From Pseudomonadota bacterium (GTDB lineage: Bacteria > Pseudomonadota > Alphaproteobacteria > Sphingomonadales > CAKZYD01), in contig JBMOOS010000039.1 of assembly GCA_049324415.1 (NCBI GenBank), positions 20,363-84,362 on the forward strand: a stretch of 64,000 bases of DNA, written 5' to 3'. The notes beneath the pieces are model-generated. The model saw only the letters and a program-made list of their open reading frames with translations. It ran no database searches and was not told where the DNA came from. Position numbers and translations under genes: made by a program. This document shows, in pieces, positions 5,147-64,000 of this stretch; within the stretch, counting starts at the first letter, position 1, and the number at the start of each line of letters is the position of its first letter.

Positions 5147-5572
5147 TTGCACCCCAAGACAGCTCTACCGTCGCCCGACGGTTCCTCCCGGCGCCGCGCC
5201 AGCGGCCGGCGGGAGCCGATGTCCGCCAAAGGCCGGGCCATATTGGCAACGATTCTCAAGGCTCTTGAAGACGGCAAGGCGGAAGATATCGTCACCATCG
5301 ACCTTATTGGAAAAACCTCCCTTGCCGACGCCATGGTGATCGCCTCCGGGCGAAGCCAGCGCCAGGTCGCGGCCTTGGCGGGCCAGGTGGTCGAGAAGCT
5401 CAAGGCCAGCAGCGCTCTTGTTCCCAAGGTCGAAGGCAAGACCTCCGGCGACTGGGTCTTGATCGACGCCGGCGATATCATCGTCCATGTCTTTCGCCCC
5501 GAGGTGCGCAGCTTTTACAATCTGGAAAAGATGTGGGCGATCGACGTCGTCGAGCCGCTGGCGCAGGCCTGA
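5147..5572 (+). CDS. rsfS: ribosome silencing factor RsfS
   Basis: LEDGKAEDIVTIDL..SLADAMVIASGRSQRQV and WVLIDAGDIIVHVF are RsfS hallmarks. TTG start preceded by AAGGAG 7 nt upstream. An alternative ATG lies at 5219. Confidence 0.88.
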   Translation: MHPKTALPSPDGSSRRRASGRREPMSAKGRAILATILKALEDGKAEDIVTIDLIGKTSLADAMVIASGRSQRQVAALAGQVVEKLKASSALVPKVEGKTSGDWVLIDAGDIIVHVFRPEVRSFYNLEKMWAIDVVEPLAQA

Positions 5573-5590
5573 GGGCGCGGCGCTTTTTCC

Positions 5591-6049
5591 ATGGCGTCGC
5601 CGATCACCGTTATTGCCGTCGGCCGACTTGGGCGCGGCCCTGAGGCCGAGTTGTGCGCGTCTTACGCAAAACGCATCGCCTGGCCGATGGACATCATCGA
5701 AATCGACGACCGCAAGGCGCCCGCCGCCAAGCGCAAGGTCTGGGAAGCGGCGCAGATCCTCAATGCCTGCCCCAGGGATGCCCATATCATCCTGCTTGAT
5801 GAACGCGGACGAGCGGTGACGAGCCCGCAACTGGCGCGTCTCATCGGCGCCAAAAGGGAGGCTGGCGAGGCCTTGGCGTTCATCATCGGCGGCGCGGACG
5901 GCGTTGATGAAGCGGTGCGCGTCCGGGCGGGCGAGGCTATCGCTTTTGGCGGCATGACCTGGCCGCATAAATTGGCGCGGGCCATGCTGATGGAGCAGCT
6001 TTACCGCGCTGGGACAATTTTAACCGGCCACCCCTATCATCGGAGCTGA
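5591..6049 (+). CDS. rlmH: 23S rRNA (pseudouridine1915-N3)-methyltransferase RlmH
   Basis: SPOUT family with FIIGGADG and a C-terminal LMEQLYRA...GHPYHR. Confidence 0.92.
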   Translation: MASPITVIAVGRLGRGPEAELCASYAKRIAWPMDIIEIDDRKAPAAKRKVWEAAQILNACPRDAHIILLDERGRAVTSPQLARLIGAKREAGEALAFIIGGADGVDEAVRVRAGEAIAFGGMTWPHKLARAMLMEQLYRAGTILTGHPYHRS

Positions 6050-45468: not shown

Positions 45469-46608
45469 CTATTGCACCGACGGAAAGGAAATTTCCACCC
45501 GACGGTTTTGCGGCTCGCGCACGCCATCCAAGGTTTCGATGAGTGGCTGGTTTTCGCCAAAGCCGCGGGTCGTTATCACGCTGGCCTCGACCCCGTTGCG
45601 GGCGAGCTCGGCTTGCACGGCGGCCGCCCGTTGCTCGGAAAGGCGCTGGTTATAGCTGGCGGCACCCGAACGGTCGGCATGGCCTTCCAAGAGGATGCGC
45701 GCCTGGCCCGTTTGGCGATAGGCATTGGCCGCATCACGGATGATGGCGGCCGCCTCGGGCGTGATATCCGCCACATCCCAATCGAAGAAGACGATGAAGG
45801 GACCCGGGATCGGGGGCGGCGGCGGAGGCGGTGGCGGAGGCGGCGGCGTCGGCTCCGGCTTTGGCTTGGCCGCGGGCGGCGGTGGGGGTGGTGGCGGCGT
45901 CGGCTCGGGTTGCGGCTTGGGGGCAACGCCGAATTTATAGCTCAGCCCGAACAGGAGGGAGTTGGAACGAAACCCTCCTTCCAGGGAGCGGCCCGTGACG
46001 TCGCGGAATCTGCCGCCATCGGTTTGGAAATGCCGGAACTTGGCGGTCAGGGAAAGCCGCTCGCTGAGGGTTTTACGCAAGCCCGCCAGAATCTGCCAGG
46101 CGAAGGCGTCGTCCTTGTCGTCGAGGAGAAGGCCCGCCGGCGCGGCAAGGCCCTTGTTGTTGACCCGGGCAAAACCGGCGCCAGCGCCGACAAAGCCGGA
46201 CACGCCGCCTTCGGACTGGGGTGTTTCGACAAGGCCGTTCAACATATAGGAAACGGCCCGCCGGTTGCCCCTCATGGGGTCGATGCTGTCAAGCGCGGAC
46301 ACGCCCAGGGCATTTACGAAAACGCTGTCGTTGAAAGCGTTGCCAGTATCGGCGCCGGCGCGCTGAAAGCCGACATCGCCTTCCAGACGAAAGCCGCCGA
46401 AGTCATAGCCAAGCTGGCCGCCGATGCTGTAGCCAAGCTTGCTCCGCACGCGAAGGACGTCGGTTTCGCTGGCATTTTCGAAATTTTGCGTGCCGACAAG
46501 ATTTGGCCCGCCGTCAACGCCTATGTACCAGCCCGTGCTCTCTTGTGCCTGCGCCGCACCGGCAAGGATGCTGGTGCCGAGCAAAGCGGCGAGAAATAGT
46601 CTCTGCAT
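45469..46608 (-). CDS. OmpA-family outer membrane protein (beta-barrel + Pro-rich hinge + OmpA_C)
   Basis: Signal peptide ..AGAAQA, N-terminal barrel strands, a poly-Pro hinge, and a C-terminal OmpA domain (LEGHADRSGAASYNQRLSEQRA, NRRVEI). Confidence 0.92.
   Translation of the reverse strand: MQRLFLAALLGTSILAGAAQAQESTGWYIGVDGGPNLVGTQNFENASETDVLRVRSKLGYSIGGQLGYDFGGFRLEGDVGFQRAGADTGNAFNDSVFVNALGVSALDSIDPMRGNRRAVSYMLNGLVETPQSEGGVSGFVGAGAGFARVNNKGLAAPAGLLLDDKDDAFAWQILAGLRKTLSERLSLTAKFRHFQTDGGRFRDVTGRSLEGGFRSNSLLFGLSYKFGVAPKPQPEPTPPPPPPPPAAKPKPEPTPPPPPPPPPPPPIPGPFIVFFDWDVADITPEAAAIIRDAANAYRQTGQARILLEGHADRSGAASYNQRLSEQRAAAVQAELARNGVEASVITTRGFGENQPLIETLDGVREPQNRRVEISFPSVQ
45799..45924 (-). repeat. 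coding tandem repeat (Pro-rich hinge, two ~50-bp units)
   Basis: KPQPEPTPPPPPPPP / KPKPEPTPPPPPPPPPPPP. The DNA units ggcggcgtcggctc(c/g)gg.t..ggcttgg occur twice within a long GGN/GGC run. Confidence 0.8.
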
Positions 46609-46783: not shown

Positions 46784-47284
46784 TCATGTTGCAATTATGC
46801 CATGGTTGCGCAAAGCCGCCAGAATAGCCGTGGTTGCGCTGCGTGCTTCATTATCGATGGTCGTCCCGCCGGTGGGGTTGGCGATGGCGGGCTGGCGCGC
46901 GGCGAGCACTTTAACGCCGCCAACGCGAATTTCAGAACCAATCAGCACTCCCGCCTGCCATTGGGCACCGTCGAAGCGGGCGGGCAAGGCCTCGTCCTTG
47001 AGCCAGGCGGTGGCGCCCTCTCGCGGGGCGAGGAAGCGCCAGCCGCCGCTAGCCCACAGGGCAAGCTCTCCGTCCTTGCCTGTCCACTCGCCCGTCCCCC
47101 CTGTGGCGACGATCCACACCGCGCCTTCAGGCGGCGTTGCGGGCGGCGTGGCGCTTAACCGGCTTTCCACCGCAGGGTGGATTAGCGCATCGAGCAGCAG
47201 CAAGGCTTCGTTATGGGTGACCTCCTTTTGCGCCTGATTGGTGGCGATCAGGGGCAGCAGCCAGCGTGCGGTGGCCTCGGACAT
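46784..47284 (-). CDS. DUF2793 domain-containing protein (GTA-cluster terminal gene)
   Basis: LP.I...QAQKEVTHNEAL..LDAL start and ..GEW.G....LA.W..GGWRF..P.EG... Typical partner downstream of the host-specificity gene. Confidence 0.8.
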   Translation of the reverse strand: MSEATARWLLPLIATNQAQKEVTHNEALLLLDALIHPAVESRLSATPPATPPEGAVWIVATGGTGEWTGKDGELALWASGGWRFLAPREGATAWLKDEALPARFDGAQWQAGVLIGSEIRVGGVKVLAARQPAIANPTGGTTIDNEARSATTAILAALRNHGIIAT

Positions 47285-47299: not shown

Positions 47300-49549
47300 T
47301 CATAAAGCGATGGTCACTTGCGCCGGCAGGCCGCGCCCGACCTGCGCCGAACGCTGGTAAAGCCGCAAGCTGAGGGTTGCCGGCAAGCCGCCAAAATCGC
47401 TGAGCTGGTCGGCGGCGCTATAAAGTGCCTGGGGCGTGGTCGTGGCATAGCTGCGCGCCACGGTGGCGCCATTGAGGATTTCCAGGTCATAAGCCTCGCT
47501 TTCCTCGGCGAGGGGGGCATCGGCACCGTCGATCCAGGCGGCGCCGGCGCGGCTGCGCCGGATCCAGCTTATGCTGATGGCGCCATCGGCCTGGCGGCGG
47601 CCCCGCACATGCACCGGGGCAAGGGGGCGCAAATTGGCCGCAGTGAAAGTGAAGGGCGTCTCCCCTGCATTGATAAGAGCCTCGTTTGGCCCCACCGCCT
47701 TATAGCGACGCGTTTCGCCAACCTGCGCCAGTGTCGCGTTAATTGCGACAATGCTCGTGCGGTCCAAAAGGACGAAGCGCTCGCCCGCAAGATGGCCGGC
47801 GATCGCCGCCTCGCTGCCCCCCCGCCCCCGCAGCAATTGGGACAGGATATAGCTGCCGTCGGCTTGCAGAGCGGCATTGCGGAACTGGATGACTTCATCG
47901 CCGAGAAGCGCGGCGTTGGCGCCGCCAAGCACGGCTATTTGTGACCGCGATTCCAGCGTTGCCTGGGGATTGTCCAAGCCAACGCGCACTGTGTTTTGTA
48001 AGTCCCAGACATGAGGGGACGCTGGCGGCAGGGCGTCAAGGGCGGCACCCATGATGGCGGGCAGCGCGCTACGCGCCACGGGCTGATAGCTGAGGCCGCC
48101 ATCGCCCGATTCGAAAAGGCTGGCCGAGCGCCACGCATCATCATCGCCAGTGGCGGCGAAGTAAAAGCGCGGCATGCTCAGCTGCTCCGGGGTCAGCGCC
48201 GGCAGGTCGAAGAGGGTAAAGAAGGTTGGCCCCTGCAAGCGCAGGGTTTGACCGATCGGCGATCCGCCGTCGGCAAGCCCGGCGCCGGTCACCGCTTCCA
48301 AGTCAACAACGCGCCCGGCAAGGCGAACGCTGACGCCGTCATAGCGCTTGTCCTCGACCAGCATCAGCGGCGCCCCGCCCGGTGTCGCCGGCAGGCGAAT
48401 GACATCGCCCGGCTCGATGGCAAGATCGGTTGGCGGCAGCGAAAGGCTGTATCGTGCGCGCCCGCTCCAGGCCTTTTCCAATCGGCGCTCGGCCGCCGCC
48501 TTGGCCGTCGCTGCATCAAGGGCGACGGGGGCGCTGAACGCGCTCGCCCCCTCGCTCGCCGCCGTCCGCCGGCGGGCGCGCTGCACATTGGGCTGGTAGT
48601 CGCGGTCGGTGTCCCAGAAATAGACCCGGGTTTCTCGCGGCAGTTCTGATGCCTCGGCCTGCATACGCTCGATGCGCGGGCGCGGCGCGCCTTCCTCGCC
48701 AGCGCCAAGCCGTGCGGCATCGAAATCGATGGCGCCTTGTGGCATATCGCGCAAATAAAGCACGCCCTGGCTTTCCACCGCGGAAAAGTCGCGGGCGAGC
48801 GAGAGATTTTCCAGCGCATCGCGAAAGCCGGTGCCGCCATCGGTGACGAAGCCGGCGACGCTTCCTGTCAGGCCCCCGCCATCGACGGGCGCAAGCCCCA
48901 CGCGCCCGGCGATGTCCAGCGCCACCGCCGCAAGACCGGCATTGGGCTCGTCGGCCACCACTTCAAAATTGAGATTGGGCACGCGATTGGCGAACTCCGC
49001 CAGGGGCAAGTCCTCGAGGACGGCATAGGCAAGGCCGCGATGGGCCGGTACCTGCCCCACCCCTTGCGCGGCTTCGATCACCGGATCGGGCTGCTGTCCT
49101 TCCTCTCCGGCATAGACCCGCAGCGTGCCACCGACGCTCAGCGGACCACTGGCCGCACGGATGAGTTTGCCGTCGGCCCAGATCCGCTCAACGCGCGCGA
49201 TGGGGCGGCCAGAGAGCGCCACCGCCAGCGAAGCGCTGTAATTGAAGCGCACCGTGGTGGTGCCGCCTCCGCCCCCCTTGCCGCCGCTTCTTTCCTCGGA
49301 CCGGCTTTCGACGAGCCCGCTCGACCAGATGACGTTGCCCGCCACCCGGGCGCGGCCATAGATAAGGGGTATTGGCGCGCCATAGGACGCGCCCTGCACG
49401 CTGAGATCCTTCAGCCGCGGCCCTTCGCGCAGGCCGCCGCCGGGGCGAAAGATCTGGCGGTCGATGAAACTGCCGGCAACGGCGCCAACAAGGCTGCCGA
49501 CGGGGCCGGCGATGGCTTGACCGACAGCGGCGAGGACGAGCGTGGCCAT
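47300..49549 (-). CDS. phage tail/host-specificity protein (RcGTA g15 'megatron'-type, short form, 749 aa)
   Basis: The N-terminus MATLVLAAVGQAIAG...YGAPIPLIYGRARVAGNVIWSS...GGKGGGGG..V.F.YSASLAVAL..GPI..V.RIWADGK...AHRGLAYAVLEDLPL..F.NRVPNLNFEV matches the g15 N-domain. The C-terminal two-thirds are phage-tail_3-like. Start trimmed to MATLVL. Confidence 0.85.
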   Translation of the reverse strand: MATLVLAAVGQAIAGPVGSLVGAVAGSFIDRQIFRPGGGLREGPRLKDLSVQGASYGAPIPLIYGRARVAGNVIWSSGLVESRSEERSGGKGGGGGTTTVRFNYSASLAVALSGRPIARVERIWADGKLIRAASGPLSVGGTLRVYAGEEGQQPDPVIEAAQGVGQVPAHRGLAYAVLEDLPLAEFANRVPNLNFEVVADEPNAGLAAVALDIAGRVGLAPVDGGGLTGSVAGFVTDGGTGFRDALENLSLARDFSAVESQGVLYLRDMPQGAIDFDAARLGAGEEGAPRPRIERMQAEASELPRETRVYFWDTDRDYQPNVQRARRRTAASEGASAFSAPVALDAATAKAAAERRLEKAWSGRARYSLSLPPTDLAIEPGDVIRLPATPGGAPLMLVEDKRYDGVSVRLAGRVVDLEAVTGAGLADGGSPIGQTLRLQGPTFFTLFDLPALTPEQLSMPRFYFAATGDDDAWRSASLFESGDGGLSYQPVARSALPAIMGAALDALPPASPHVWDLQNTVRVGLDNPQATLESRSQIAVLGGANAALLGDEVIQFRNAALQADGSYILSQLLRGRGGSEAAIAGHLAGERFVLLDRTSIVAINATLAQVGETRRYKAVGPNEALINAGETPFTFTAANLRPLAPVHVRGRRQADGAISISWIRRSRAGAAWIDGADAPLAEESEAYDLEILNGATVARSYATTTPQALYSAADQLSDFGGLPATLSLRLYQRSAQVGRGLPAQVTIAL

Positions 49550-49959
49550 TAGGAAACCCCTGGGAAACGGTAGGCGCCGACAAGCCGCGCGCGCCACACG
49601 GGGTCAAGCCGGTGCTCGACCACGCGGCGCGCCAAGGCATAGGCGTGGATCATGCCCTTGTCGCTGGCGAGCGCCACATGCTGCGCCGGTCCATCGATGC
49701 GAAACAGCAAGACATCGCCGGGAAGCGCCGCCACCGGCGGGATCGGCGCCAGGCCGGCGGCGGCAAGATGGCGCTCCAACAGGCCGTGCGCCGGCTGGCG
49801 GCCATAGTCGCAAGGGTCGTCGGTCTGCAACCCCACGCCATGGGCGACATGGATGAGAAGGCCGACGCAATCGAGCCCCCGGCCCAATGCCCGGCCTTGA
49901 TGGCGAAAGGGCGTGCCCAAACACTGCCGGGCGGCGGCCACCAGATCATCGCGGGTCAT
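49549..49959 (-). CDS. NlpC/P60 family peptidase (RcGTA g14 type)
   Basis: GTPFRHQGR...GLDCVGL (catalytic Cys) and ...GD.L.F......HVA.. (His). Conserved position. Confidence 0.88.
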   Translation of the reverse strand: MTRDDLVAAARQCLGTPFRHQGRALGRGLDCVGLLIHVAHGVGLQTDDPCDYGRQPAHGLLERHLAAAGLAPIPPVAALPGDVLLFRIDGPAQHVALASDKGMIHAYALARRVVEHRLDPVWRARLVGAYRFPGVS

Positions 49960-50798: not shown

Positions 50799-53153
50799 CT
50801 AAAGCCTGATCTCAACGAGGGGGATGGAAGGCACTTCCCCCGCCGCGAAGGTCTCGAAGCTGACTGCAAGGCTGTCCTCGGCGAAGCGCACGGGCACATC
50901 GAACTCGAAGCCGGCGGTGATCTGCGCGCCGCTGACCGGCGGATTTTCAAAATCGAGCACGCCGGTGGTGGTGTCGACGACCCAGCCGCTGGTCAGCTCG
51001 ACCCCATCGAGGGCGACGCGCACCGTTCCCGCCACCGGCTTCAAAATGGGGCGCACCACATCGGCGCCAAGGTCGCCATAATGCTTCACCAGTTGGAAGC
51101 TGGTGGCAAGGCCATCGCCCGCACCTAGCACTTGATCGCTCGCGCTGACCGAGGTGCCCACGCTGGCGGAGCTGAAATCGGCCCAGTCCTTGAAGCGAAA
51201 GCCGTGGGCGCGACCTTGGCGGGCGCGAAAAAAGGCGATGAGCTGGGCCAGGTCGGCCTCGCCGCGCAAGCCTCCGCCCACGTCATAGCGGGCACGCGCC
51301 TGCGCCCAATTGATATTGCGCTGTTCGGCGCCGGAGACCATCTCGCTCACCGTGGTGGAAAAGACAGGGCCGCCCGTGGCGCCGAAAGCGATATCGACGG
51401 GAAAGCGCACCTCGTGGAAGCCGGTCATATCGTCATCCTCCAGTTGGAAAAAAACAAAGCCGTCCCGGGCGACCTGCGGATAGGCCCAGACGAAGACCTC
51501 GGCAAAGCCGCGGGCGCGCCCATCCTCGATGGCGCGCGCGATGTTGCGCCACAGCGCACCATCGGCGGGGTCAAGGACGAAGCCGGCGAAATAATCGCTG
51601 TCCTGCGGGCTGTAGCCGAAACGCGCAGCGACTTGCGCAAGGCCCGCCGCATGGGCGCGCCAATCGCCAGCGATGACGTGGTCATAGTCTTCGACCTGCA
51701 GCCGGGTGAAGGCGGGAAATGACCAGCTTGCCGGCATGTTGACGCTGGCCAGCATGGGCGCGTCCGTGCGCAACACCTGCGGGGTGTAGACCAGAAGAAA
51801 GACCTTGGCGCCGGGATAGGCCCCCTGCACCGCATCGCGCAAGGCAAGGGTCGCCGCGCCCAGCTTCGTCCCGAGCCAATCGAGATAAGCCTGCTGCGCC
51901 GCATCTGGCGTTTCGGTGACGCTTTGATGGGCCGGCGGCACCGCCTGTCCCGTCTCCGCCGTATAAAGGGCGGTGGTGGTAGCGTCGTAAAAGCAGGGCT
52001 TGGCGCTAGCATCGGACGCAACCCACCACCAGGGCTCACCAATCTGCACCGCAGGGAGAAGGCCGGCGGCGGCCTGCACGCCGGTAAATTCCAGAAAGGC
52101 GTCGGCGAGATAATCCATGGCGGTGTCGTTGGTGGGCGTAAGGAGGGTGGAGGGCGGCTGCCAGCCGGTGAGCGCCGGGCTGGCGTCAAAGGCGCGCTGC
52201 TTCCAGCTTGCCGGCGCCCAAGCGTCGAAGAGCTCGAAGGAAAGCGAAAGGATGACCTCATAGCCCAAGGCGGCGGCGCGGGCGAAATAATCCTGATGCC
52301 ACGCCCGGCACGGGGCATTGAGGACGCTGCCATTGCCATCGCGGGCGGCGATGAAACGGCTCTCGCCGGCATCGAAGGCCAAGCGGAAATAATGGCTCAT
52401 CCCGGCATAATGGTCGAGCGCGCCTTGATAGCCGAGATGAAGGGCGTTGCGCAGCAGACGCTCAGGCGTCTGGTTGAATACATCGTCATAGCCATTGGCG
52501 AGGCGCAGCGGGTGCGGCGGGGTGAAGGCATCGCCAAGGCCGATGGTGCTCAGCGGCCCCTCGGCCGCCATCGCGCTGATTTCCACCCAGGCCTCGGCGG
52601 CGCCATTGGCGAGCGGGCCGGTGGCGACGCCATCAAAGTCGGGCGGCACCATGGAGATGAACATGCGGTCGATATCGCCCGGCCATAGCGGGTCGGCTTC
52701 TTGGGGAAGAAGAAAGCCGCCGTCCATTTGGCTGAAGTCAAGGGTGATGAGGGCGTCATCGGTGGCGCCGACGGCATAGTTCCAGAGCCGCACATACCAG
52801 GTGCGCGGCGCCCCGCTGGCGTCGCGGCCTTCGATGGTGAGGGTGGGGCCATTGACCTCGGCCAGGCCGCGGATGCCGCCGGCGCGCCAGCGGAAGCGCA
52901 AAACCGTGCCGCTATAGTCCCGCGCCGTTTCATAGCGCAAATGCGGCGGGTCGAGGGTATCGACGCTGTCCCAAATAAGCCCGGCAAGATTGTCGCGCTC
53001 GTAAAATGTCAAATCGACCCTGAGGGCGTCGCTCCCCTGGGTGATGACCGAGGCCATCATCGGGCGGGGGAAGTTGACGGTCCAGAAGCGGGGGTCGAAG
53101 CGCTTGATGAAGGTGCGCCTCAGCGCGTCTTCGGGGGCGGTGAGCCAATACAT
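50799..53153 (-). CDS. DUF2460 distal-tail protein (RcGTA g12 type) fused in frame to a ~575-aa N-terminal module of unknown (TIM-barrel-like?) function
   Basis: The C-terminal 209 aa (MTGFHEVRFPVDIAFGATGGP....RN.NW.....YDV..G......L..LIAFF.AR.GR.HGFRFKDW.D) are a complete DUF2460. The 575 upstream codons are in the same frame with no stop and have normal W/Y/F/D-rich composition. An internal GGAGG-N8-ATG lies at 51441-51426. Confidence 0.8.
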   Translation of the reverse strand: MYWLTAPEDALRRTFIKRFDPRFWTVNFPRPMMASVITQGSDALRVDLTFYERDNLAGLIWDSVDTLDPPHLRYETARDYSGTVLRFRWRAGGIRGLAEVNGPTLTIEGRDASGAPRTWYVRLWNYAVGATDDALITLDFSQMDGGFLLPQEADPLWPGDIDRMFISMVPPDFDGVATGPLANGAAEAWVEISAMAAEGPLSTIGLGDAFTPPHPLRLANGYDDVFNQTPERLLRNALHLGYQGALDHYAGMSHYFRLAFDAGESRFIAARDGNGSVLNAPCRAWHQDYFARAAALGYEVILSLSFELFDAWAPASWKQRAFDASPALTGWQPPSTLLTPTNDTAMDYLADAFLEFTGVQAAAGLLPAVQIGEPWWWVASDASAKPCFYDATTTALYTAETGQAVPPAHQSVTETPDAAQQAYLDWLGTKLGAATLALRDAVQGAYPGAKVFLLVYTPQVLRTDAPMLASVNMPASWSFPAFTRLQVEDYDHVIAGDWRAHAAGLAQVAARFGYSPQDSDYFAGFVLDPADGALWRNIARAIEDGRARGFAEVFVWAYPQVARDGFVFFQLEDDDMTGFHEVRFPVDIAFGATGGPVFSTTVSEMVSGAEQRNINWAQARARYDVGGGLRGEADLAQLIAFFRARQGRAHGFRFKDWADFSSASVGTSVSASDQVLGAGDGLATSFQLVKHYGDLGADVVRPILKPVAGTVRVALDGVELTSGWVVDTTTGVLDFENPPVSGAQITAGFEFDVPVRFAEDSLAVSFETFAAGEVPSIPLVEIRL

Positions 53154-55935: not shown

Positions 55936-56267
55936 GTCGCCGCCGCCCCTTCGCAATCCAGCTCCAGCATGCGCCGGGCGCCGGTGGAGTCGATGACCCG
56001 CAGCACCAGCAAGGGGCGGCCGCGCCACAGGAGACGCATGCCCGGCGCCACCCCGGCGCGATAGCGCAAATAGACTTTATAGGCCACCACGGCATCACGG
56101 CGCTGGGCGATATCGACACTGCTCGCGGCGCGCGGGGTGATGGCCGCCTTGCAGCGCGCGACATCGCGCCAGACGTCCTCTTGGCCGCCACCGCCATCGC
56201 CGGCATCGCTCGCCCGCGCTTGCAGCCATACCGAGTGGCTGAGCGCGCCGGCTTCTTCCCCGCCCAT
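55932..56267 (-). CDS. phage head closure / head-tail adaptor protein (RcGTA g7 type)
   Basis: ...VWA.......E......Q......Y.V.LRYR.GV..GMRL.W.GR.L.V..V.D. Start trimmed to MGGEEAG (TGATG junction with g6). Confidence 0.75.
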   Translation of the reverse strand: MGGEEAGALSHSVWLQARASDAGDGGGGQEDVWRDVARCKAAITPRAASSVDIAQRRDAVVAYKVYLRYRAGVAPGMRLLWRGRPLLVLRVIDSTGARRMLELDCEGAAAT

Positions 56268-56806
56268 CACAGGTGCATCTCCCGATAGGGTTGCCACAAG
56301 GCGGTGACGGCGGTGGGCACCGCCGGCGCCGAAGCATCGTCGCGATAGCGATAGGCGTGGGCGATGAGGCGCAACAGTCCTTGGCGCAGGGGCCAGGGGA
56401 CGGCGTTCCAATCCGCGCCATAGCCGGCGCGATAGTCGATCTCGAGACGGCTGGCGGTGGCGGGCAAGCGTTTAAGGACAAGCTGGTCGCGGCCATCGCC
56501 CTGCACCAGCGCATAGTCGCCGGCGGACCAATCGAAGCTTGCGAGGCTGCTGGCTTCGCGCACCGTAAGGATGGCTTCCACCGGCCCATGGCCAAGGGTG
56601 ATGGCGGCCGTCATCGCTTGAGTGCGGTAGCGCCAGGTCTGGCTGATGAGGGAACGGCCCGTGAACCCCTCGCAGGTCTGGCGCGCCGTGGTGATCAGCA
56701 TGGCGACAAGCGCGTCTTCCGTCTCGTCCTCGAGGCGCAAATAGGCGCGCGCCTCGTCGAGCGAGACAGGCTCCACCGCCGGCGGGGAAAGAAGAAGATA
56801 GCTCAT
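56267..56806 (-). CDS. phage gp6-like head-tail connector protein (RcGTA g6 type)
   Basis: P.VEPVSLDEARAYLRLEDETEDALVAMLITTARQTCEGFTGRSLI.QTWRY is the classic gp6-like connector N-domain. Confidence 0.85.
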   Translation of the reverse strand: MSYLLLSPPAVEPVSLDEARAYLRLEDETEDALVAMLITTARQTCEGFTGRSLISQTWRYRTQAMTAAITLGHGPVEAILTVREASSLASFDWSAGDYALVQGDGRDQLVLKRLPATASRLEIDYRAGYGADWNAVPWPLRQGLLRLIAHAYRYRDDASAPAVPTAVTALWQPYREMHL

Positions 56807-57087
56807 CAGCGCTCATCCACCAGAATGGTGAAGCTGCGTTCCTCGACAAGGCCGCCCGATAGAGCGATGCGGTTGGCAACGCGATAGGCGTGGCGCTTAA
56901 TCCCGGCGGCCAGGGTGACTGAAGCCTTGGTCCCGTCGAGCGCCTCGCCAAGGATGGCAAGCCCGCCTTCCTCTTGCGGCGAAAGCGACCAGTTGCTCGT
57001 GAGGATGGTTTGTCCGGCAAACCCGGCGTCCGCCCATTCAATGCTGTAGTCAAGGGTGGCTTGCGGGTCTTTAAGAAAGGTGGTCAT
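56806..57087 (-). CDS. small phage protein (93 aa), K-DP-x3-LDY-x3-W family
   Basis: MTTFLKDPQATLDYSIEWA....GQTI.TS.W...... ...Y.V.NRI....G...ERSF.I.V.ER resembles a widespread small phage beta-sandwich family that I recall sitting next to fibre/tail genes. Only the last 93 codons of track ORF 56806..57516 look real. Confidence 0.6.
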   Translation of the reverse strand: MTTFLKDPQATLDYSIEWADAGFAGQTILTSNWSLSPQEEGGLAILGEALDGTKASVTLAAGIKRHAYRVANRIALSGGLVEERSFTILVDER

Positions 57088-57587
57088 ACGCTGGCCGCCG
57101 TCAAGGTCACGGTAACGTCGATGGTGTCGCCGTTCGCCACTACCCGGTTGCCACCGGCAAATGCCGCCCCGCCCATCAAAATGCCGGTGGTCCCGCCCTT
57201 GGTCGCATTGGTGGCGACGAAGGCGCCGCCCACGGTGCCGCTGGCGTTGATGGCAAAGCTCGCCTTGACGGCTGAATTGTCCACCGATTGCGCCGAGACG
57301 GTCCCCAAGGTCAGCGTCGGCCGGGCGGCGTTTGAATAGACGGTGCTTTCGGTCCAGCCGGCGTGGGAAGCCATGGTGTCGGCGGCGGCGAAAGTGGGCG
57401 TCCCGCCGGCGAGCCCGACATAATGCGCCGCCGTGTAGGCAGCGCCTTTCCAGAACTTGTCGAGAATCTCGTCGAGCCCGACATTGACCGTGATGTTTTT
57501 TACGGTCTCGCGCCATTTGACGGCGCCCGCCGCATCGCGGCAGACAACTTCATAGGTGTTGCGGAAAGCGGTATTGATTTGGGTCAT
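57084..57587 (-). CDS. hypothetical phage structural protein (167 aa, beta-rich)
   Basis: ATGA-coupled on both sides within the operon. Real-looking composition (W, Y, F, N, T rich). I recognise no family. Confidence 0.6.
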   Translation of the reverse strand: MTQINTAFRNTYEVVCRDAAGAVKWRETVKNITVNVGLDEILDKFWKGAAYTAAHYVGLAGGTPTFAAADTMASHAGWTESTVYSNAARPTLTLGTVSAQSVDNSAVKASFAINASGTVGGAFVATNATKGGTTGILMGGAAFAGGNRVVANGDTIDVTVTLTAASV

Positions 57588-58660
57588 GCCTTGATGCTCC
57601 TTTGGCTGGCAGTGATGGTGATGGTGCGCTTCCCCGCGCCCACGGTGAGGGTGCGGCTGGCCGCGCCGATGGCAATGGTCCTTCCCGGGCTGGGCGTGAC
57701 GGTGGTGGCAAGGGCAAACAGCGCACCTGCGCCATGCCCTATCTCGATAAGGTCATTGACGGTGAGCTTGCCCGATGCGCTCGCCGCGAACAGGCCGGCA
57801 ATGGTGATGGTTGCGCCCACCGCCGTGCGTTCTTGCTGGGCAATGTCAAGGTCCACGGCAAGCGCCAGGTCGGCGCCGATCCTGACTGCGTTCAGCGGCG
57901 AAAGGCCAGCGCCAAGGCTTAGCGACAGTGCCTCGGCGATGGCCTGGCCGCCGGGGCTTGCCGCCAGCCCGGCTCCTATCCCAAGCGCCATCGGGGCGAT
58001 GAGATAAGAGGTGACGGCAGCATCGAGCCCGGCGCCCTGGTCAAGGCTTATCAGCCCGGCAACGCCCGCCGTGCCGCCCAGTCCTGCGCTCGCGCCAAGG
58101 CCTAGATTTATTGTCTCGCTAAATACCGTACCGCCCGCAACCGGTGTAATGCTGACATGGGCGAGCGCCCAATAGCCGCTCAAGCTTGCATCGCCCAGCC
58201 GGAAGGTGGCGATAGAGCCAGTGAAGGTCAGCGTCGCCGCGGCATTGTTGGCGACCCAGTCGGCGACGCTGGTACGCAAAACATTGCTCGCGTCGTAGAA
58301 CTGCGCGGCATTGGTCGAACCCGGCGCGATGTCGAGGAGGACCGTCGCGCCGTCGAGCACCTGGATGCGCTGGGCGGTTTGCGCGAAACCCTCATCGCCC
58401 AGGGCAAGGCGTATCTGATATTGGCCGGGCGCTGGCAAATCGACGGAGAAGTTTCTTATTTTGGTGGCAAGATGCGAATGCACCCCGGCAAGCCGGGCGT
58501 CCACCGCGTTCGAGCGGTTGGCCCGCGTCAGGCCGCCGGTATTGTCCCAGCCGAAGGTCTGACCGTCGCGGGTGACGGGATAGGTATCGTTGCCGACGAA
58601 CACGTCGCCCGGCGCGTCCGTCACATGGGACGCCGTCGCCCTGAAGTTAAAGCCGGCCAT
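57584..58660 (-). CDS. hypothetical phage structural protein (358 aa; globular N-domain + periodic Gly/Ala/Leu-rich C-terminal half)
   Basis: Operon strand, starting 54 nt after the capsid stop. The N-terminal ~175 aa are beta-rich. The C-terminal half has recurring L.LGAGL-type segments and ends in four R(T/S)-led ~9-mers. Confidence 0.6.
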   Translation of the reverse strand: MAGFNFRATASHVTDAPGDVFVGNDTYPVTRDGQTFGWDNTGGLTRANRSNAVDARLAGVHSHLATKIRNFSVDLPAPGQYQIRLALGDEGFAQTAQRIQVLDGATVLLDIAPGSTNAAQFYDASNVLRTSVADWVANNAAATLTFTGSIATFRLGDASLSGYWALAHVSITPVAGGTVFSETINLGLGASAGLGGTAGVAGLISLDQGAGLDAAVTSYLIAPMALGIGAGLAASPGGQAIAEALSLSLGAGLSPLNAVRIGADLALAVDLDIAQQERTAVGATITIAGLFAASASGKLTVNDLIEIGHGAGALFALATTVTPSPGRTIAIGAASRTLTVGAGKRTITITASQRSIKA

Positions 58661-58714
58661 GGATGAAATGGGCGAGGCGGCCGTTTCTTGCCGCCCCGCG
58701 TCCGTCCCTTGTTT

Positions 58715-59974
58715 TCAGCTGAGGGCGAATTTGAGAAGCTTGATGGCCTCGGAATTCATCACCCCGCCGCCTGTGCGCCTGGTGGCGTAGAAATGAATGA
58801 AGGGCTTGTTGGAGAAGGGGTCGCGCAAGACCCGTGTCCCCATGCGGTCGGTAATGAGATAGCCGCGGGTGAAATTACCGAAAGCGATGGGCAGACCGTC
58901 GGCGCCGATATCGGGCATGTCCTCGGCTTCAACGACGGGATAGCCAAGCAAGGTGGCGGCCGCCGCCTCGCCCAACCCCGGCCGCCATAGATAATTGCCA
59001 TCGGCATCCTTGAACTTGCGGATGCGGGCCAGCGTGTTGGTGTTCATGACGAAGCGCGCGCCTTGGCGATAGACCGGCCGCAAGGCATGGACGAGGTCCA
59101 CCAGCTTATCGGCAGGATTGCTAGCCGGAAAGTCGCCGGAAACCCCGGTCGCCACATGCTGCAAGGTGCCGAAGGGGCGGCTTGCGTCATCGCTGGCGGC
59201 GGTGGCGTAGCTGAGGAAACCCCTGGGCTTGTCGATCCCGTCGCCGGCGACAAAGGCGGCGCCTTCCTTGGCCCCGAATTCGATGGCAAGCTCGTCGGCG
59301 AGCCAAGCCTCGACGTCGAAAAAGGCATCATCGAGCATGCCTTGGGTCGCCGCCGGATTGGCGTAAATCTCGCCCAAGGGCGGGGTGACCTCGGCAAATT
59401 GCGGGGTTCCCGTCTCCGGCCGGGCAGCGCTTTCCCCCACCCAGCCCGAGGCGGCGCCCGTCATGCTCACCAGTTTTTTGTAACTGCCGCTGCCGATCTG
59501 CGTCACATTGGCGATGGCGCGGATGGGGGAGACATCCTTTAAGAGACGCTCGATGGCGGCATCGATTTGCTGCGGCACGGCAAATCCGCCGTCCGCGTCA
59601 ACCCCGGTATTGAGCGCCTTGGCCTCAATCCGGGGCAAGCCGGTCTCGAGGCCCTTGCGCACATAGCGATCGATGAACGCGGTCTTGTATTCGTCGGCTT
59701 GTCCGCCGCGCCCGCTGCCTTCGAGCATGGGCCGAGCGGCGCGGCGCGTCAGCATGTCGACACGGCCGTGCAGCCGGTCGACCTCGGCATTGATACGGTC
59801 AAGTTTTTGCTCGAGGACGGCATCGCCCGTCCGCTCGGCCTCTTCATGGCTGGCCTTGAAGGCCTCGAAGGCCTGGCCCAGTTCGTCGACCGCCGCCTTG
59901 ATTTCATAGGCGCTGGCGGCGGGCCGGGCACAGGCTTCGGCCGGACTATCGGTTGGAGAGTGGCTATAGGTCAT
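58715..59974 (-). CDS. phage major capsid protein, HK97 family (RcGTA g5 type)
   Basis: N-terminal delta/scaffold-like helical region, then ..GGF.VP.......I..L....SP.R..A.V. and ...P.GFL.Y...... 419 aa. Confidence 0.92.
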   Translation of the reverse strand: MTYSHSPTDSPAEACARPAASAYEIKAAVDELGQAFEAFKASHEEAERTGDAVLEQKLDRINAEVDRLHGRVDMLTRRAARPMLEGSGRGGQADEYKTAFIDRYVRKGLETGLPRIEAKALNTGVDADGGFAVPQQIDAAIERLLKDVSPIRAIANVTQIGSGSYKKLVSMTGAASGWVGESAARPETGTPQFAEVTPPLGEIYANPAATQGMLDDAFFDVEAWLADELAIEFGAKEGAAFVAGDGIDKPRGFLSYATAASDDASRPFGTLQHVATGVSGDFPASNPADKLVDLVHALRPVYRQGARFVMNTNTLARIRKFKDADGNYLWRPGLGEAAAATLLGYPVVEAEDMPDIGADGLPIAFGNFTRGYLITDRMGTRVLRDPFSNKPFIHFYATRRTGGGVMNSEAIKLLKFALS

Positions 59975-60540
59975 GGACGTGCTCCTGTGTTGAGGGCGTG
60001 AATGAGGTTTTGCAAGCTCGCAAGAAGCGCCGACGAAGTGGGCTTTGCGTACCTGTCTGGCGGCGCGTCAGGGGCTGGTCTTGCCTTGATGGCGGTAAGC
60101 CTGGCGGCCGGCTGCATGGGGAAAGTCACCAGCGAGACTTCCCACAAGTCGATGTCGATGAGCCGGCGCACGCTGCGCGCGGCGTCGACTTCCGCCGCGC
60201 GGACCTTGTAGCCGATCGACAGGCCATCAAGGGCGCCGGCCCGCAGCAAGGCCTGGGCTTCCCGAGCACGAATGACATCGCCCAGCAGCCGGCCGCGCAC
60301 GAACAGGCCGTGGCTGTCCTCCCGGATATGCTCGATGACGCCGACAGGCTCGCGCGGGTCGTGCTGCCATAAAAGCTTGACGCCGCCCGCGCCGCGGGCT
60401 TTCAGCGAGCGGGCAAAGGCGCCGGGCATGATTTCATCGCGACCCTGGTCGATGCGTCCGAAAACGCTGGCATAGCCCTCGAAGCGTCCCACCTCGGCAA
60501 GGGACGCGAGGGCGCCAGCGGCGTTGCAGCAATGCGCCAC
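59971..60540 (-). CDS. HK97 family prohead protease (RcGTA g4 type)
   Basis: FEGYASVFG..D..RD.I.PGAF..SL......VK.LWQHD...P.G and ...GL.V.G.L......A.E....R.GALDGLSIGY. 4-nt overlap with the capsid gene. Confidence 0.9.
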   Translation of the reverse strand: MAHCCNAAGALASLAEVGRFEGYASVFGRIDQGRDEIMPGAFARSLKARGAGGVKLLWQHDPREPVGVIEHIREDSHGLFVRGRLLGDVIRAREAQALLRAGALDGLSIGYKVRAAEVDAARSVRRLIDIDLWEVSLVTFPMQPAARLTAIKARPAPDAPPDRYAKPTSSALLASLQNLIHALNTGARP

Positions 60541-60577: not shown

Positions 60578-60901
60578 CTAAGGGCGGACCGTCTTGAGGT
60601 AGAGCACCAGCCCGACGAGGAGAGCGGTGATCATGATCTTGACCAGCCAATTGACGGCGGCACGCCAGGCGGTGCGCCGCAGATCGCGCCAGGCGGTGAT
60701 GAGCTGGCGCAATTCGTAAATATCGCCGCCGGCATGGGCATCGCCAAGGCCAAGCTGGGCAAGGGCGCGGGCAGCGCCTATTTCGCTGGCCTCCTCGACA
60801 AGCGCACGCAAGGTAACGACATCGGCGCCGCCAGCCTGGGCTTGCCGCGCCAGGGCGGCGAGCAGGCTTTCGCTGTTTTGGTATCGGGCTGGCTTGTTCA
60901 T
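60578..60901 (-). CDS. small protein with C-terminal TM helix at the g3.5 position of GTA clusters
   Basis: 107 aa with a helical N-terminal part and a C-terminal TM (WLVKIMITALLVGLVLYL). The position between portal and protease mirrors the RcGTA g3.5 slot. Confidence 0.55.
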   Translation of the reverse strand: MNKPARYQNSESLLAALARQAQAGGADVVTLRALVEEASEIGAARALAQLGLGDAHAGGDIYELRQLITAWRDLRRTAWRAAVNWLVKIMITALLVGLVLYLKTVRP

Positions 60902-61359: not shown

Positions 61360-62604
61360 TCAAGCGCCAGCCTCGTCCCCTTCTGGGACGTCCTCGCCAT
61401 CGCGCATCCGGGCCGGCAGGAGCGGCAATCCCAGAACGACACGCTTTTCCGCGTCAGTCAAAAAGCTTGCCGCCGCCACCATGCGCCATAAAGCCTCGCG
61501 CTCCGGTAACAAGGCCGGGATGGCGTTGCGGTCGAAGTCGAGCTTCAACCCACCGCCAAAGGCGGGGGCGAGCCAGCGGTCGAGGGCGCCGGCAAGCTTG
61601 CCGAGTAGGGGCAACAGGCTGAGCCGCCACAGGGCGCGGTTGGCTTCCTGATAATTGGCGTAAGTATTGTCGCCGGGGATGCCCAACAGCATGGGCGGGA
61701 CGCCGAAGGCGAGCGCGATGTCGCGGGCGGCAGCGTTTTTGGTCGCGTGATAATCCATGTCGGACGGCGAAAAGGCCATCTGCTGCCATTTAAGGCCGCC
61801 TTCGAGAAGCAGAGGCCGGCCGGCGTTGCCGCTGCCTTGGAAGTTTTCCTCCATTTCTTTTTTAAGACGCAGGAACTGCTCCTCGCTGAGCGCTGGCGCG
61901 CCGTCGCGGGGCTCGAAAACGAGCGCCCCGGAAGGCCGCGCCGCGTTGTCGAGAAGAGCCTTGTTCCAGCCATCCACGGCGCCGTGGAGGTCGAGGCCGC
62001 GGGCTGCGGCATCGAGGGCTGAAAGACCCAAATGGTCGTCGAGGGGATCGAATTCGCGGATATGCAAAATTGACGAGGCGCCGCTAATGGGATCGACGGG
62101 AAAACGGTGCTTGGCGCCTCCAGCGCGGTATTCATAGGCCTCCGGCCAGCCGGACGCGCCAGCAAGGATATGCATGCGGTCGGGCCGCAGCACATGAAGC
62201 TCCGCCGGCGCCCCCTCGCTGTCATCGACCCGCTCGATGAAGGCATCCCCCGCAAGCAGAAGATAGCCAATGAGCGCTTCGATGAATTCCGCGCCGCCAA
62301 GCAGCGGGTTGGGCCGTCGCAAAAGATCAAGAAGCGGGTGCTGGATCAGCGCCCGGCCTTCCTGCTCAAGCCGCCAGGGCACTGCGGCGATCGATTGGCT
62401 GACGATCCGCACGCAACGCTGGACCACGGGATTTTCCGCCATCCCGCGCCGCACGAGGCTGGCATAAGACCGCCCCGACCATTGGGCGCCCATGCCAGCG
62501 AAAAGCCATGTTTCAAGCCGCGCCGGCGCGCCGCCACGCGCCGCGCTCGCCTTGGCTTCCAGTACGGGTCGCGGCCGCCGGAAGGGATTGCCAAATATCG
62601 CCAT
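61360..62604 (-). CDS. phage portal protein, HK97 family (RcGTA g3 type)
   Basis: ...NP.V.RCV..I...IA.VPW.L......... .HPLL.LL.RPNP...G..F.E......LL.G.A. and ...GW.....Y. 414 aa. Confidence 0.92.
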   Translation of the reverse strand: MAIFGNPFRRPRPVLEAKASAARGGAPARLETWLFAGMGAQWSGRSYASLVRRGMAENPVVQRCVRIVSQSIAAVPWRLEQEGRALIQHPLLDLLRRPNPLLGGAEFIEALIGYLLLAGDAFIERVDDSEGAPAELHVLRPDRMHILAGASGWPEAYEYRAGGAKHRFPVDPISGASSILHIREFDPLDDHLGLSALDAAARGLDLHGAVDGWNKALLDNAARPSGALVFEPRDGAPALSEEQFLRLKKEMEENFQGSGNAGRPLLLEGGLKWQQMAFSPSDMDYHATKNAAARDIALAFGVPPMLLGIPGDNTYANYQEANRALWRLSLLPLLGKLAGALDRWLAPAFGGGLKLDFDRNAIPALLPEREALWRMVAAASFLTDAEKRVVLGLPLLPARMRDGEDVPEGDEAGA

Positions 62605-62692: not shown

Positions 62693-64000
62693 TTAGCCGA
62701 GCCGCCGCACCCGCGGCGCGGCGGCGGCCGATGCGCCCATCAAGTCGGTCAGCGCCCAGACCAGCGCGTCCATGCGGTCGGGGCTCGCCTTGCCGCCGGC
62801 CGGCGCAAAGCTGCACATCTCATCCTCGAGTTCCAGCATGAGGCCGACATGATGGACCTGGCCGCGCTCGTAAAGCGCCGCCACCGGCTCGGCGCGGATA
62901 AGCTTGCCGCGGCTGGCGCGCACCGCGCGATAAGCGACATGGGACGCGCAGGCGCGCAGCACCGCTTCCACGAGGTCGCCGCCATTGTTCACCTCCGCCA
63001 CCAGCCGGTCGGCGCCATGGCGGTCATAGGCGGCGACGGCGCGTTGGCTCCAGCCTTCGGGGCTCAGGCCCTGCACGCTGTCGTCGGCAAGGACATAGAA
63101 ATGGCCGTCCGGCCCGAGGCCAGCAGTGACAATGCCGCAGCGATCGGAGGTGGCATGGCTGGTCACTGGCGGGTCCACCGCCACCACCACGCGCATGAGC
63201 GGCGGCGGCGCCTCGACGCGGTAGGCGTCGATCATGTCTTGGCGCCACAGGGCGCCAGCGTGATCCTCCAAGAGCATGCCTTCCAGCTCTTGCCGGCCCA
63301 AGCGCGTGCCCTGATAGCGCTCGCGCATCTGGGCGATGAAGCCGGCCGGCAAATGCGTGGCATTTTCCCAGGTGGTTCCCCGGGTGACGACGGTGGCGGG
63401 GGCGGCAAGAAGATTGCGCAGCAAGGCCATGGGCCGCGGCGTCGTGGTGACCAGAAGGCGCGGGCGCGCGCCCAGGCGCAAGCCCAGCAAGAGGTTGGAC
63501 CAGACGGCCTCGGCGCGGTGCCATTTCGCCAGCTCATCGCCCCAGGCAAGGCCATGCTGGGGGCCGCGCAGTTGATCCGGCTCGTCCGCCGAATAGAGGG
63601 TGGCGACCGCGCCGTTGGGCCAGACGAGGCGGCGCCGCGCGGCTTCGAAGCAGGGCCGTTGCCCGGGCGGCGCGCAGGCAAGAAAGCCGGATTCGCCCTC
63701 GACCAGGATGTCGCGGCCATCGGCAAGGCTGCCGGCGACAAGGGCGATGCGCGCCGGCGCGTGCCCAGGCGCCAAAAGCGGGCTTGCCCCTTCGACGAAG
63801 CGACGGACCCATTCCACCCCCAGCCGCGTCTTGCCAAAGCCGCGCCCGGCAACCACCAGCCAGCAGAACCAATCGCCCGGCGGCGGCAGTTGCTTGGGCC
63901 GGGCCCAAAAGCGCCAGTCATGAAGAAGCTGGCGTGCGGCGGACGCATCGATATCGCTTATCACCGCGCGCCAGGCGGCGGGACCTTGGCGCACCAGCCG
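62693..64000 (-). CDS. phage terminase large subunit (RcGTA g2 type), 5' end at or beyond window edge
   Basis: LL.DW.FWARP.Q..P.GDW..WL..AGRGFGKTR.G.EWV (Walker-A-like) and a C-terminal RNaseH-like nuclease region. The frame stays open to position 64000. Confidence 0.9.
   Translation of the reverse strand, partial: RLVRQGPAAWRAVISDIDASAARQLLHDWRFWARPKQLPPPGDWFCWLVVAGRGFGKTRLGVEWVRRFVEGASPLLAPGHAPARIALVAGSLADGRDILVEGESGFLACAPPGQRPCFEAARRRLVWPNGAVATLYSADEPDQLRGPQHGLAWGDELAKWHRAEAVWSNLLLGLRLGARPRLLVTTTPRPMALLRNLLAAPATVVTRGTTWENATHLPAGFIAQMRERYQGTRLGRQELEGMLLEDHAGALWRQDMIDAYRVEAPPPLMRVVVAVDPPVTSHATSDRCGIVTAGLGPDGHFYVLADDSVQGLSPEGWSQRAVAAYDRHGADRLVAEVNNGGDLVEAVLRACASHVAYRAVRASRGKLIRAEPVAALYERGQVHHVGLMLELEDEMCSFAPAGGKASPDRMDALVWALTDLMGASAAAAPRVRRLG

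Follow-up and report, generated by a model that had tools for sequence, protein, structure and literature searches.

A candidate neck-fibre cassette between the capsid and connector genes of an RcGTA-type cluster

Introduction

What do three additional genes do when they lie between the major capsid gene and the head-tail connector gene of a gene transfer agent (GTA) cluster? The recipient range of GTAs is thought to rest on polysaccharide-binding appendages that are encoded outside the head-tail cluster. We address this question in a 64,000-nt stretch of DNA, hereafter the window, from an alphaproteobacterium of the Sphingomonadales (contig JBMOOS010000039.1, positions 20,363 to 84,362 of the forward strand; assembly GCA_049324415.1). 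On its minus strand lies a cluster of the type known from the Rhodobacter capsulatus GTA (RcGTA), with the gene order TerL, portal, DUF6127, protease, capsid, three extra open reading frames (ORFs) and g6; the extra ORFs encode proteins of 358, 167 and 93 aa, which we call A358, B167 and C93. By analogy with the podophage GP4 and the myophage Bas63, we favour on balance the reading that the trio encodes a collar-anchored, beads-on-a-string neck fibre with a lectin-like tip, carried on an RcGTA-type, siphovirus-like particle. If so, some GTA-type clusters would carry a swappable adhesion organelle for the neck within the cluster itself.

The block is bounded upstream by g5, which encodes an HK97-type major capsid protein of 419 aa (58715-59974, minus strand; TIGR01554, E 3e-122; Pfam Phage_capsid, E 3e-89), and downstream by g6, which encodes a head-tail connector or adaptor of 179 aa (56267-56806, minus strand; TIGR02215, E 3e-36; phrog_442, head-tail adaptor). 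A reading of the window from its letters alone (the sequence-only reading) had described the three extra genes as translationally coupled, and its coordinates, overlaps and spacing hold: ATGA overlaps join A358 to B167 and B167 to C93, TGATG joins C93 to g6, and A358 starts 54 nt past the capsid stop. All three ORFs are intact, with one terminal stop each. The same reading took direct adjacency of g5 and g6 to be canonical, and a related cluster (L009) bears this out: its capsid ORF runs to 18495 and its g6 ORF opens at about 18499. Because g6 directly follows the capsid gene in that cluster, the 1.85 kb between the two genes in the window is a genuine extra block. Because the B167 and A358 families are large, C93 matches the Pfam family Gp77, and the nonsynonymous rate lies far below the synonymous rate for B167 (0.275 versus 1.8) and C93 (0.57 versus 2.4), as it does for the capsid and terminase genes, with synonymous rates saturated, the three are real genes and not chance ORFs.

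Candidate adaptor, bead and rope proteins

The gene nearest g6 is the most readily assigned. C93 (56806-57087, minus strand) matches Pfam PF23148, Gp77, at 79.3 bits (cut-off 27; E 3e-22) over nearly the whole model, positions 1-83 of 84, and is, by sequence, a secure member of this family, the fibre-tail adaptor of the podophage GP4. It also matches the solved GP4 chain 8jou_D (phmmer, E 0.003), and a hidden Markov model (HMM) built from C93 relatives finds GP4 gp77 at E 6e-19. The sequence-only reading had tied a motif in this protein to a small fibre-attachment family, which proves to be Gp77. In GP4, 15 copies of the 93-aa immunoglobulin (Ig)-like adaptor ring the dodecameric head-to-tail adaptor and anchor the fibres (PMC11445570). 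C93 is thus placed by family as a putative Ig-like collar subunit, and the direct succession of a Gp77 gene and an adaptor gene recurs in two other loci (L033 and L112).

The second gene, B167 (57084-57587, minus strand), is our candidate for the fibre subunit, or bead. Its product has no match in Pfam or NCBIfam but belongs to the PHROG 8123 family (phrog_8123, E 4e-29), for which we found about 2,975 homologues, many at 60-70% identity. Between the window and L009, B167 is more conserved than its neighbours, at 69% identity as against 60% for the capsid, 54% for TerL and 33% for g6. One homologue has been solved within a virion, as a "structural protein" (PDB 26la_U/44nx; E 1e-12 with the single sequence, 3e-18 with a family profile); its sequence is identical to ORF007 of Pseudomonas phage KPP25, and our literature search found no structural paper on KPP25 or Kochitakasuvirus that identifies 26la/44nx. 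The AlphaFold2 (AF2) model of B167 has a predicted local distance difference test (pLDDT) score of 84. The fibre-I complex of the Ralstonia podophage GP4 (PDB 8JOU) was reportedly described by Zheng et al. in 2023 (J Mol Biol 435:168258). It is a fibre-I chain of this complex, 8jou_a, that gives the best PDB fold match of the B167 model (Foldseek probability 0.95, E 0.02, template-modelling (TM) scores 0.39/0.46); the protein, which the sequence-only reading had called jelly-roll-like, is thus not placed among jelly-roll decoration proteins. A connector chain of Bas63, 9mt4_L, stands lower in the same list, and matches in the BFVD reach TM 0.84, some of them annotated as tail fibres. From its predicted fold, B167 probably works like GP4 fibre I.

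Membership of B167 in the family of that fibre, Gp80, was also considered and rejected. Four of 36 B167 relatives do come close to Pfam Gp80 (PF23140), at about 25 bits and just under the cut-off of 27, which counts in favour of the fibre-subunit reading. A family profile run against the PDB, hhalign, Smith-Waterman alignment and an HMM of our own all fall short of significance. Because no sequence test is significant, we do not place B167 in the Gp80 family.

Several further observations concern B167 and its relatives. Its predicted fold also matches uncharacterised proteins from filamentous viruses of archaea (AFV1 ORF274, SIFV gp53-like, Betalipothrixvirus) and from haloarchaeal tailed viruses (BFVD, probability 1.0, TM 0.5-0.65), and the bead fold may on these models extend well beyond tailed bacteriophages. 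A B167 homologue of 62% identity lies between a Terminase_2 gene and the gene for a 445-aa protein that precedes a P22-type portal (L114, 6219-6776; L115, 6976-7533); this phage is abundant, with 144 blocks of the collection, and the site is an odd one for a fibre subunit. A second family of small beta-rich proteins, of about 135-147 aa and beginning MALKYS...RIYSG..P, is encoded at L003 6482-6925, L002 6461-6904, L104 7540-7950 and L107 7160-7561. It adjoins B homologues in KPP25 and in Acidovorax phage AP1, and A-family genes in two viral contigs, and may be another family of fibre subunits.

The first gene, A358 (57584-58660, minus strand), lies nearest the capsid gene and falls into three parts. 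Residues 1-175 (58136-58660, minus strand) are modelled with pLDDT above 90 as a beta-sandwich like those of carbohydrate-binding modules (CBMs). PDB matches of this model include CBM6, CBM35, CBM61, domain III of a Cry toxin and the CBA120 tailspike, all at Foldseek probability 1.0 and E from 1.6e-4 to 1e-3, with target-normalised TM scores of 0.37-0.54 for stand-alone CBMs; as modelled, the N-domain has a CBM6/35/61-like fold. Searches with A358 returned nothing from Pfam, PHROGs, NCBIfam, the PDB by sequence or tblastn against phages. A single-sequence search found two partial relatives and no close orthologue, and a profile search found 54, whereas an exhaustive search with residues 1-175 alone recovered 1,546 cluster representatives, 1,123 of them at E <= 1e-10. 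Within this A family the N-domain is conserved and the tail variable. Among relatives P0176-P0323, the N-domain may stand alone (in proteins of about 190-210 aa), be repeated two or three times in tandem, or form part of proteins of up to 2,540 aa.

Beyond the N-domain, AF2 gives no structure for residues 180-358. Residues of about 176-322 (57695-58135, minus strand; pLDDT below 50) form a disordered tail rich in Ala, Gly and Leu (20%, 16% and 13%) with a 20-residue periodicity. Relatives that share the A domain have tails unrelated in sequence, yet these have periods of 18-22 residues, with autocorrelation z as high as 18. The protein ends, at residues 326-358 (57587-57685, minus strand), in four 9-residue repeats of type xRTxxV (GRTIAIGAA, SRTLTVGAG, KRTITITAS and QRSIKA; lag-9 z 6.4). 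A globular N-domain with a repetitive tail, as read from the sequence, is therefore what we find; for the tail, a rope that passes through beads is likelier than a self-standing shaft.

A similar product is encoded in GP4. The gene beside fibre I there specifies a Gly/Ala-rich protein of 325 aa; about 200 of its residues repeat with a period of 20 (z 5.2), and ERQLFV and SRTLVV motifs lie near its end. PDB 8JOU holds 10 gp80 chains and 3 gp77 chains; 10 gp80 chains and about 200 periodic residues fit one 20-mer per subunit. Neither gp79 nor gp78 of GP4 has a sequence match in the PDB.

Linkage across genomes

We scanned species-representative genomes with a B profile and obtained 65 loci, spread over many phyla. 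Immediately upstream of B there is typically an ORF of 360-850 aa, with its C-terminal part in perfect 20-residue register. Among ORFs of at least 300 aa, a lag-20 z of at least 5 was reached by 17 of the 23 upstream of B and by 15 of 277 others (Fisher p 2e-14, an indicative value only), and all 15 of those exceptions also adjoin B, mostly on its downstream side, as in GP4.

In about 17 loci, the next gene after B is one for Gp77. The terminal 9-mers of the rope-like proteins go with this Gp77 gene: their median z is 4.3 in 11 loci with Gp77 versus -0.8 in 11 without (Mann-Whitney p 2.5e-4, again indicative and a correlation only). The N-terminal heads of the proteins encoded upstream of B vary, being Laminin_G_3 domains, CBM-like as in A358, or of no known domain. 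Because the repeat chassis is conserved at the C-terminus and the heads are swappable at the N-terminus, the C-terminus would be the anchor; a conserved chassis for anchoring, fitted with distal heads that can be exchanged, should give just this pattern.

Comparison with known appendages and proposed assembly

Solved structures offer a template for such an arrangement. In Bas63, an Ig-like collar sits at the interface of adaptor and head-completion proteins, whisker dimers wrap a rope that leaves the collar "like beads on a string", and a strand of the rope completes the incomplete sandwich of each whisker (PMC12609058). In GP4 the rope is a separate protein that bears five fibre-I dimers (PMC12609058). 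Following these precedents, C93 would encircle the g6 adaptor at the neck, and the C-terminal 9-mers of A358 would insert as strands into the C93 ring. A358 would be the rope, each 20-residue unit of its tail completing the open beta-sandwich of one B167 subunit, so that about seven 20-mers would string roughly 3-4 B167 dimers end to end. The CBM-like N-terminal domain would then form the distal tip, which might bind surface polysaccharide of recipient cells reversibly, aid adsorption and shape the recipient range.

GP4 shares several features with the module in the window. Both have a Gp77-family adaptor of 93 aa, a small beta-rich subunit (that of GP4 being the best fold match to B167), clustered genes, and, in the gene adjoining fibre I of GP4, 20-residue Gly/Ala-rich repeats with xR(T/Q)LxV motifs near the end. 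They differ in that GP4 is a podophage, whereas the carrier here is an RcGTA-type long-tailed particle, and in gene order, which is rope, bead, adaptor in the window and bead, rope, a 568-aa protein, adaptor in GP4. B167 also has an extra N-terminal hairpin and misses the Pfam Gp80 threshold, and the rope candidate of the window bears an N-terminal CBM-like domain. In GP4 the stoichiometry is a 15-mer ring with five fibres. The Felixounavirus myophages Bas63 and Sf14 (PDB 9MT4; PMC12609058, PMC11821841) share with our proposal a long-tailed particle, an Ig-like collar and rope-threaded whisker dimers, and a Bas63 connector chain is among the B167 fold matches. By contrast, the rope of Bas63 extends from the N-terminus of its collar protein and bears two dimers, and the candidate in the window, which has a globular tip, is a protein of its own, of 358 aa.

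Two other kinds of appendage invite comparison. The RcGTA head spikes GhsA/GhsB and the tail fibre or tailspike rcc00171 are polysaccharide-directed adhesion appendages that affect recipient capability (PMC5721377, PMC7296036, PMC10218006), but they attach at capsid vertices or at the baseplate and are encoded at separate loci, as the sequence-only reading had stated (PMC5721377). A sequence search of A358, B167 and C93 against the RcGTA chains in the PDB gave no match. The neck fibres of cyanophage A-1(L) and the whiskers of T4 are likewise flexible bead-chain fibres hooked to the neck, and A-1(L) adds a distal carbohydrate-binding module and three co-transcribed genes (PMC10966104); their building blocks are unrelated (A-1(L) mounts trimeric beads on a ring of 15 gp5 copies, and T4 uses coiled coils of fibritin), and the likeness is one of analogy only. 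Seen against all of these, the module in the window would be a known collar-rope-bead kind of fibre in a new carrier, with a lectin-tipped rope.

A wider generalisation can be put forward, which we hold tentatively and with more doubt than conviction. It supposes a widespread, unnamed modular fibre system composed of an exchangeable lectin-like head, n 20-residue bead units and about 3-6 9-residue units of type xRTxxV that dock in a Gp77 collar, present in prophages of many phyla and with a bead fold that reaches archaeal viruses; alphaproteobacterial GTAs would have taken it over for neck fibres with lectin tips, which would determine the recipients of their DNA and would be a different organelle from the head spikes and tail fibres of RcGTA. 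If the neck-fibre reading is right, the number of beads and the length of the fibre could be predicted from the number of 20-mers, the 9-mers would show which end docks to the collar, and annotation would come within reach for thousands of phage proteins now called "hypothetical" (about 3,000 in the B family and more than 1,500 clusters with the A-type domain). Related clusters differ in tip, with Laminin_G_3 as against the CBM-like domain here, and this difference would provide a genomic handle on DNA recipients. If the neck-fibre reading is wrong, the block would be just another mosaic phage fibre cassette.

Alternative explanations

Several results weigh against a GP4/Bas63-type neck fibre. 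The 20-residue signal in the tail of A358 itself is modest (lag-20 autocorrelation z 3.8), and the similarity of this tail to the GP4 rope candidate is not significant (BLASTP E 0.62). That the 325-aa product of GP4 is a rope is itself inferred, and the product is absent from the PDB by sequence. B167 has no Pfam Gp80 hit at E <= 1; its fold match to gp80 is modest, at TM of only about 0.4-0.46, and direct comparison of the two sequences gives 4.6% probability with hhalign and z 0.8 by Smith-Waterman alignment with shuffles. The loci behind the linkage statistics share phylogeny and are not independent, which is why their p-values are indicative only. Our HMMs found no B or Gp77 gene in 38 viral contigs that encode the A-type N-domain, in many cases together with a periodic tail, and the conserved upstream ORFs of about 140 aa in these contigs are helical and not bead-like. 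Periodic tails can thus exist without a detectable B partner; they may engage other bead families or form fibres alone. Finally, the window comes from a metagenome-assembled genome (MAG).

The last but one of these points also speaks for a self-standing trimeric side or tail fibre, in which the 20-mers of A358 would form a beta-helical or beta-spiral shaft, B167 would be a chaperone or distal accessory, and C93 would adapt the fibre to the tail or baseplate. AF2 models of a monomer have low confidence for interdigitated trimeric shafts too, some proteins of the B fold are annotated "tail fiber", and one B homologue (in L015) lies after the tape measure gene. Even so, we judge this arrangement improbable: a protein that is more conserved than the capsid (69% as against 60% in L009) and has a virion-solved homologue would be an atypical chaperone, the tight and lineage-independent adjacency of B genes to proteins with 20-residue repeats fits the published rope-and-bead architecture, and the 20-residue period and Gly/Ala-rich composition of the tail match the GP4 gene beside fibre I. 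The position of the block suggests something else again, namely a head decoration or head fibre, with the A358 N-domain on the capsid, the tail and B167 pointing outward, C93 as an accessory and the genes placed after that of the capsid because their products are head-borne. The block does come straight after the capsid gene, L084 and the P0003 element likewise have A-family genes behind capsid genes, and Vibrio phage VS-ABTNL-3 has the succession capsid, 97-aa ORF, repetitive 328-aa ORF and B homologue. The cassette lies equally upstream of terminase in related GTA-type clusters, however, so that gene position is uninformative. The conserved N-domain and variable tail of the A family recall the many fibres that conserve the end attached to the virion, but across loci it is the C-terminal repeat chassis that is conserved and the N-terminal head that is exchangeable, which makes the C-terminus the anchor, and the fold of the A358 N-domain is that of sugar-binding modules. 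The only solved relative of Gp77, moreover, rings the head-to-tail adaptor and not the capsid. We regard a head-borne structure as unlikely. The sequence-only reading had suggested a decoration, a head fibre or a receptor-binding module that bears on host range; the in-cluster fibre or receptor-binding module is the best supported of these, and decoration or head fibre is less likely because the solved relatives, in GP4 and in Bas63/Sf14, place the kit at the neck adaptor and not on capsid hexamers.

We give very little credence to the view that the trio is inert cargo, the remains of a phage, acquired recently and not built into particles any more. Such a view draws on the mobility of the cassette and its differing positions in related clusters, on an A358 that has no close orthologue and no obvious Shine-Dalgarno sequence before it, and on a source that is a MAG. 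It is hard to square with intact frames whose start/stop overlaps chain the trio to g6, with nonsynonymous rates far below synonymous ones for B167 and C93, a purifying selection comparable to that on capsid and terminase, and with the joint retention of B, C and a rope-like partner in several GTA-type clusters whose core genes are only 50-60% identical.

Distribution and setting of the cassette

Comparison of loci, which the sequence-only reading had proposed, shows the trio kept together while its position shifts. In L112, a 675-kb contig with a canonical RcGTA-type cluster, the order is capsid, a 143-aa ORF, a 387-aa rope-like protein, B (63% identical), Gp77 and g6; nothing in the window corresponds to the additional 143-aa ORF (5322-5753), between the capsid and rope-like genes, and no Pfam match is recorded for it. 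In L033, a prophage in a MAG of Aliifodinibius (Bacteroidota), it is portal, protease, HK97 capsid, a rope with Laminin_G_3, B, Gp77 and head-tail adaptor. In three other GTA-type clusters (L005/L009, L007/L008 and L113), rope, B and Gp77 immediately precede the terminase genes. The block is a mobile cassette that occurs in several positions and lineages, not a one-off insertion. A limited full-text search of the GTA literature yielded no report of Gp77, whiskers, neck fibres or extra genes between g5 and g6, which is not proof of absence.

In two alphaproteobacterial MAGs, a LexA/CI-like gene with helix-turn-helix (HTH) and Peptidase_S24 domains precedes the cassette by about 3 kb (L005, 2959-3606; L007, 2566-3225). 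Just upstream of the rope-B-Gp77-terminase block stand a TPR gene, in both, and a sulfotransferase gene, in L005 only. The HTH/Peptidase_S24 gene and these neighbours may be relevant to the regulation of these GTA-type clusters.

Upstream of the capsid gene in the window, and like it on the minus strand, lie TerL (62693-63994), portal (61360-62604), DUF6127 (60578-60901) and protease (59971-60540), all in RcGTA order. Downstream of g6 follow, in order, genes for a gp10-like protein, the major tail protein, TAC_6, a short tape measure protein, DUF2460/TIGR02217, a TIGR02218 hub and an NlpC-like protein; the cluster ends with the megatron NF048004 (partial) and then a DUF2793 ORF. The genes thus keep the RcGTA-type order from g2 to g15, with tail and baseplate proteins specific to that family. 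Host genes begin at about 46.6 kb, beyond this end of the cluster. The DUF2793 ORF (46784-47284, minus strand), directly after the megatron, is probably still part of the cluster, and the next gene, for an OmpA-family outer-membrane protein (45469-46608, minus strand), marks the host boundary. Between 46.7 and 64 kb there are no genes for integrase, lysis or replication; the DNA upstream of TerL falls outside the window.

The tail genes show an unusual fusion. An uninterrupted ORF of 784 aa (50799-53153, minus strand) joins NCTSP_N and TIM-barrel_NCTSP domains (E 1e-88 and 4e-129), those of a "non-contractile tail sheath protein", to the g12 distal tail protein, which is represented by DUF2460/TIGR02217 at residues 580-783. 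The megatron g15 (47300-49597, minus strand), of 765 aa, matches the C-terminal half of NF048004 only (positions 759-1298) and is without the GTA_TIM part that is present in the 1,319-aa g15 of L112. It seems that the TIM-barrel module has left g15 and become fused to g12.

Sequence features ahead of A358

The 54-nt spacer between the capsid gene and A358 contains the GC-rich stem-loop that the sequence-only reading had pointed out (58672-58699, minus strand; 10-bp stem, 8-nt loop). It folds at -26.8 kcal/mol, and 15 of 200 shuffled sequences fold equally well (z -1.65); it has no U tract and was not flagged by a terminator scan. We rejected a terminator or attenuator on this shuffle score and the lack of a U tract, and the stem-loop is probably unremarkable.

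The public annotation of A358 (P0001, 346 aa) begins at a GTG 12 codons after the ATG (58625-58660, minus strand). The GFNFRAT strand, which is conserved and modelled at pLDDT of about 92, lies upstream of that GTG. Because this conserved strand precedes the annotated start, the ATG at 58660 is the better-supported start of A358, and the deposited protein is probably truncated.

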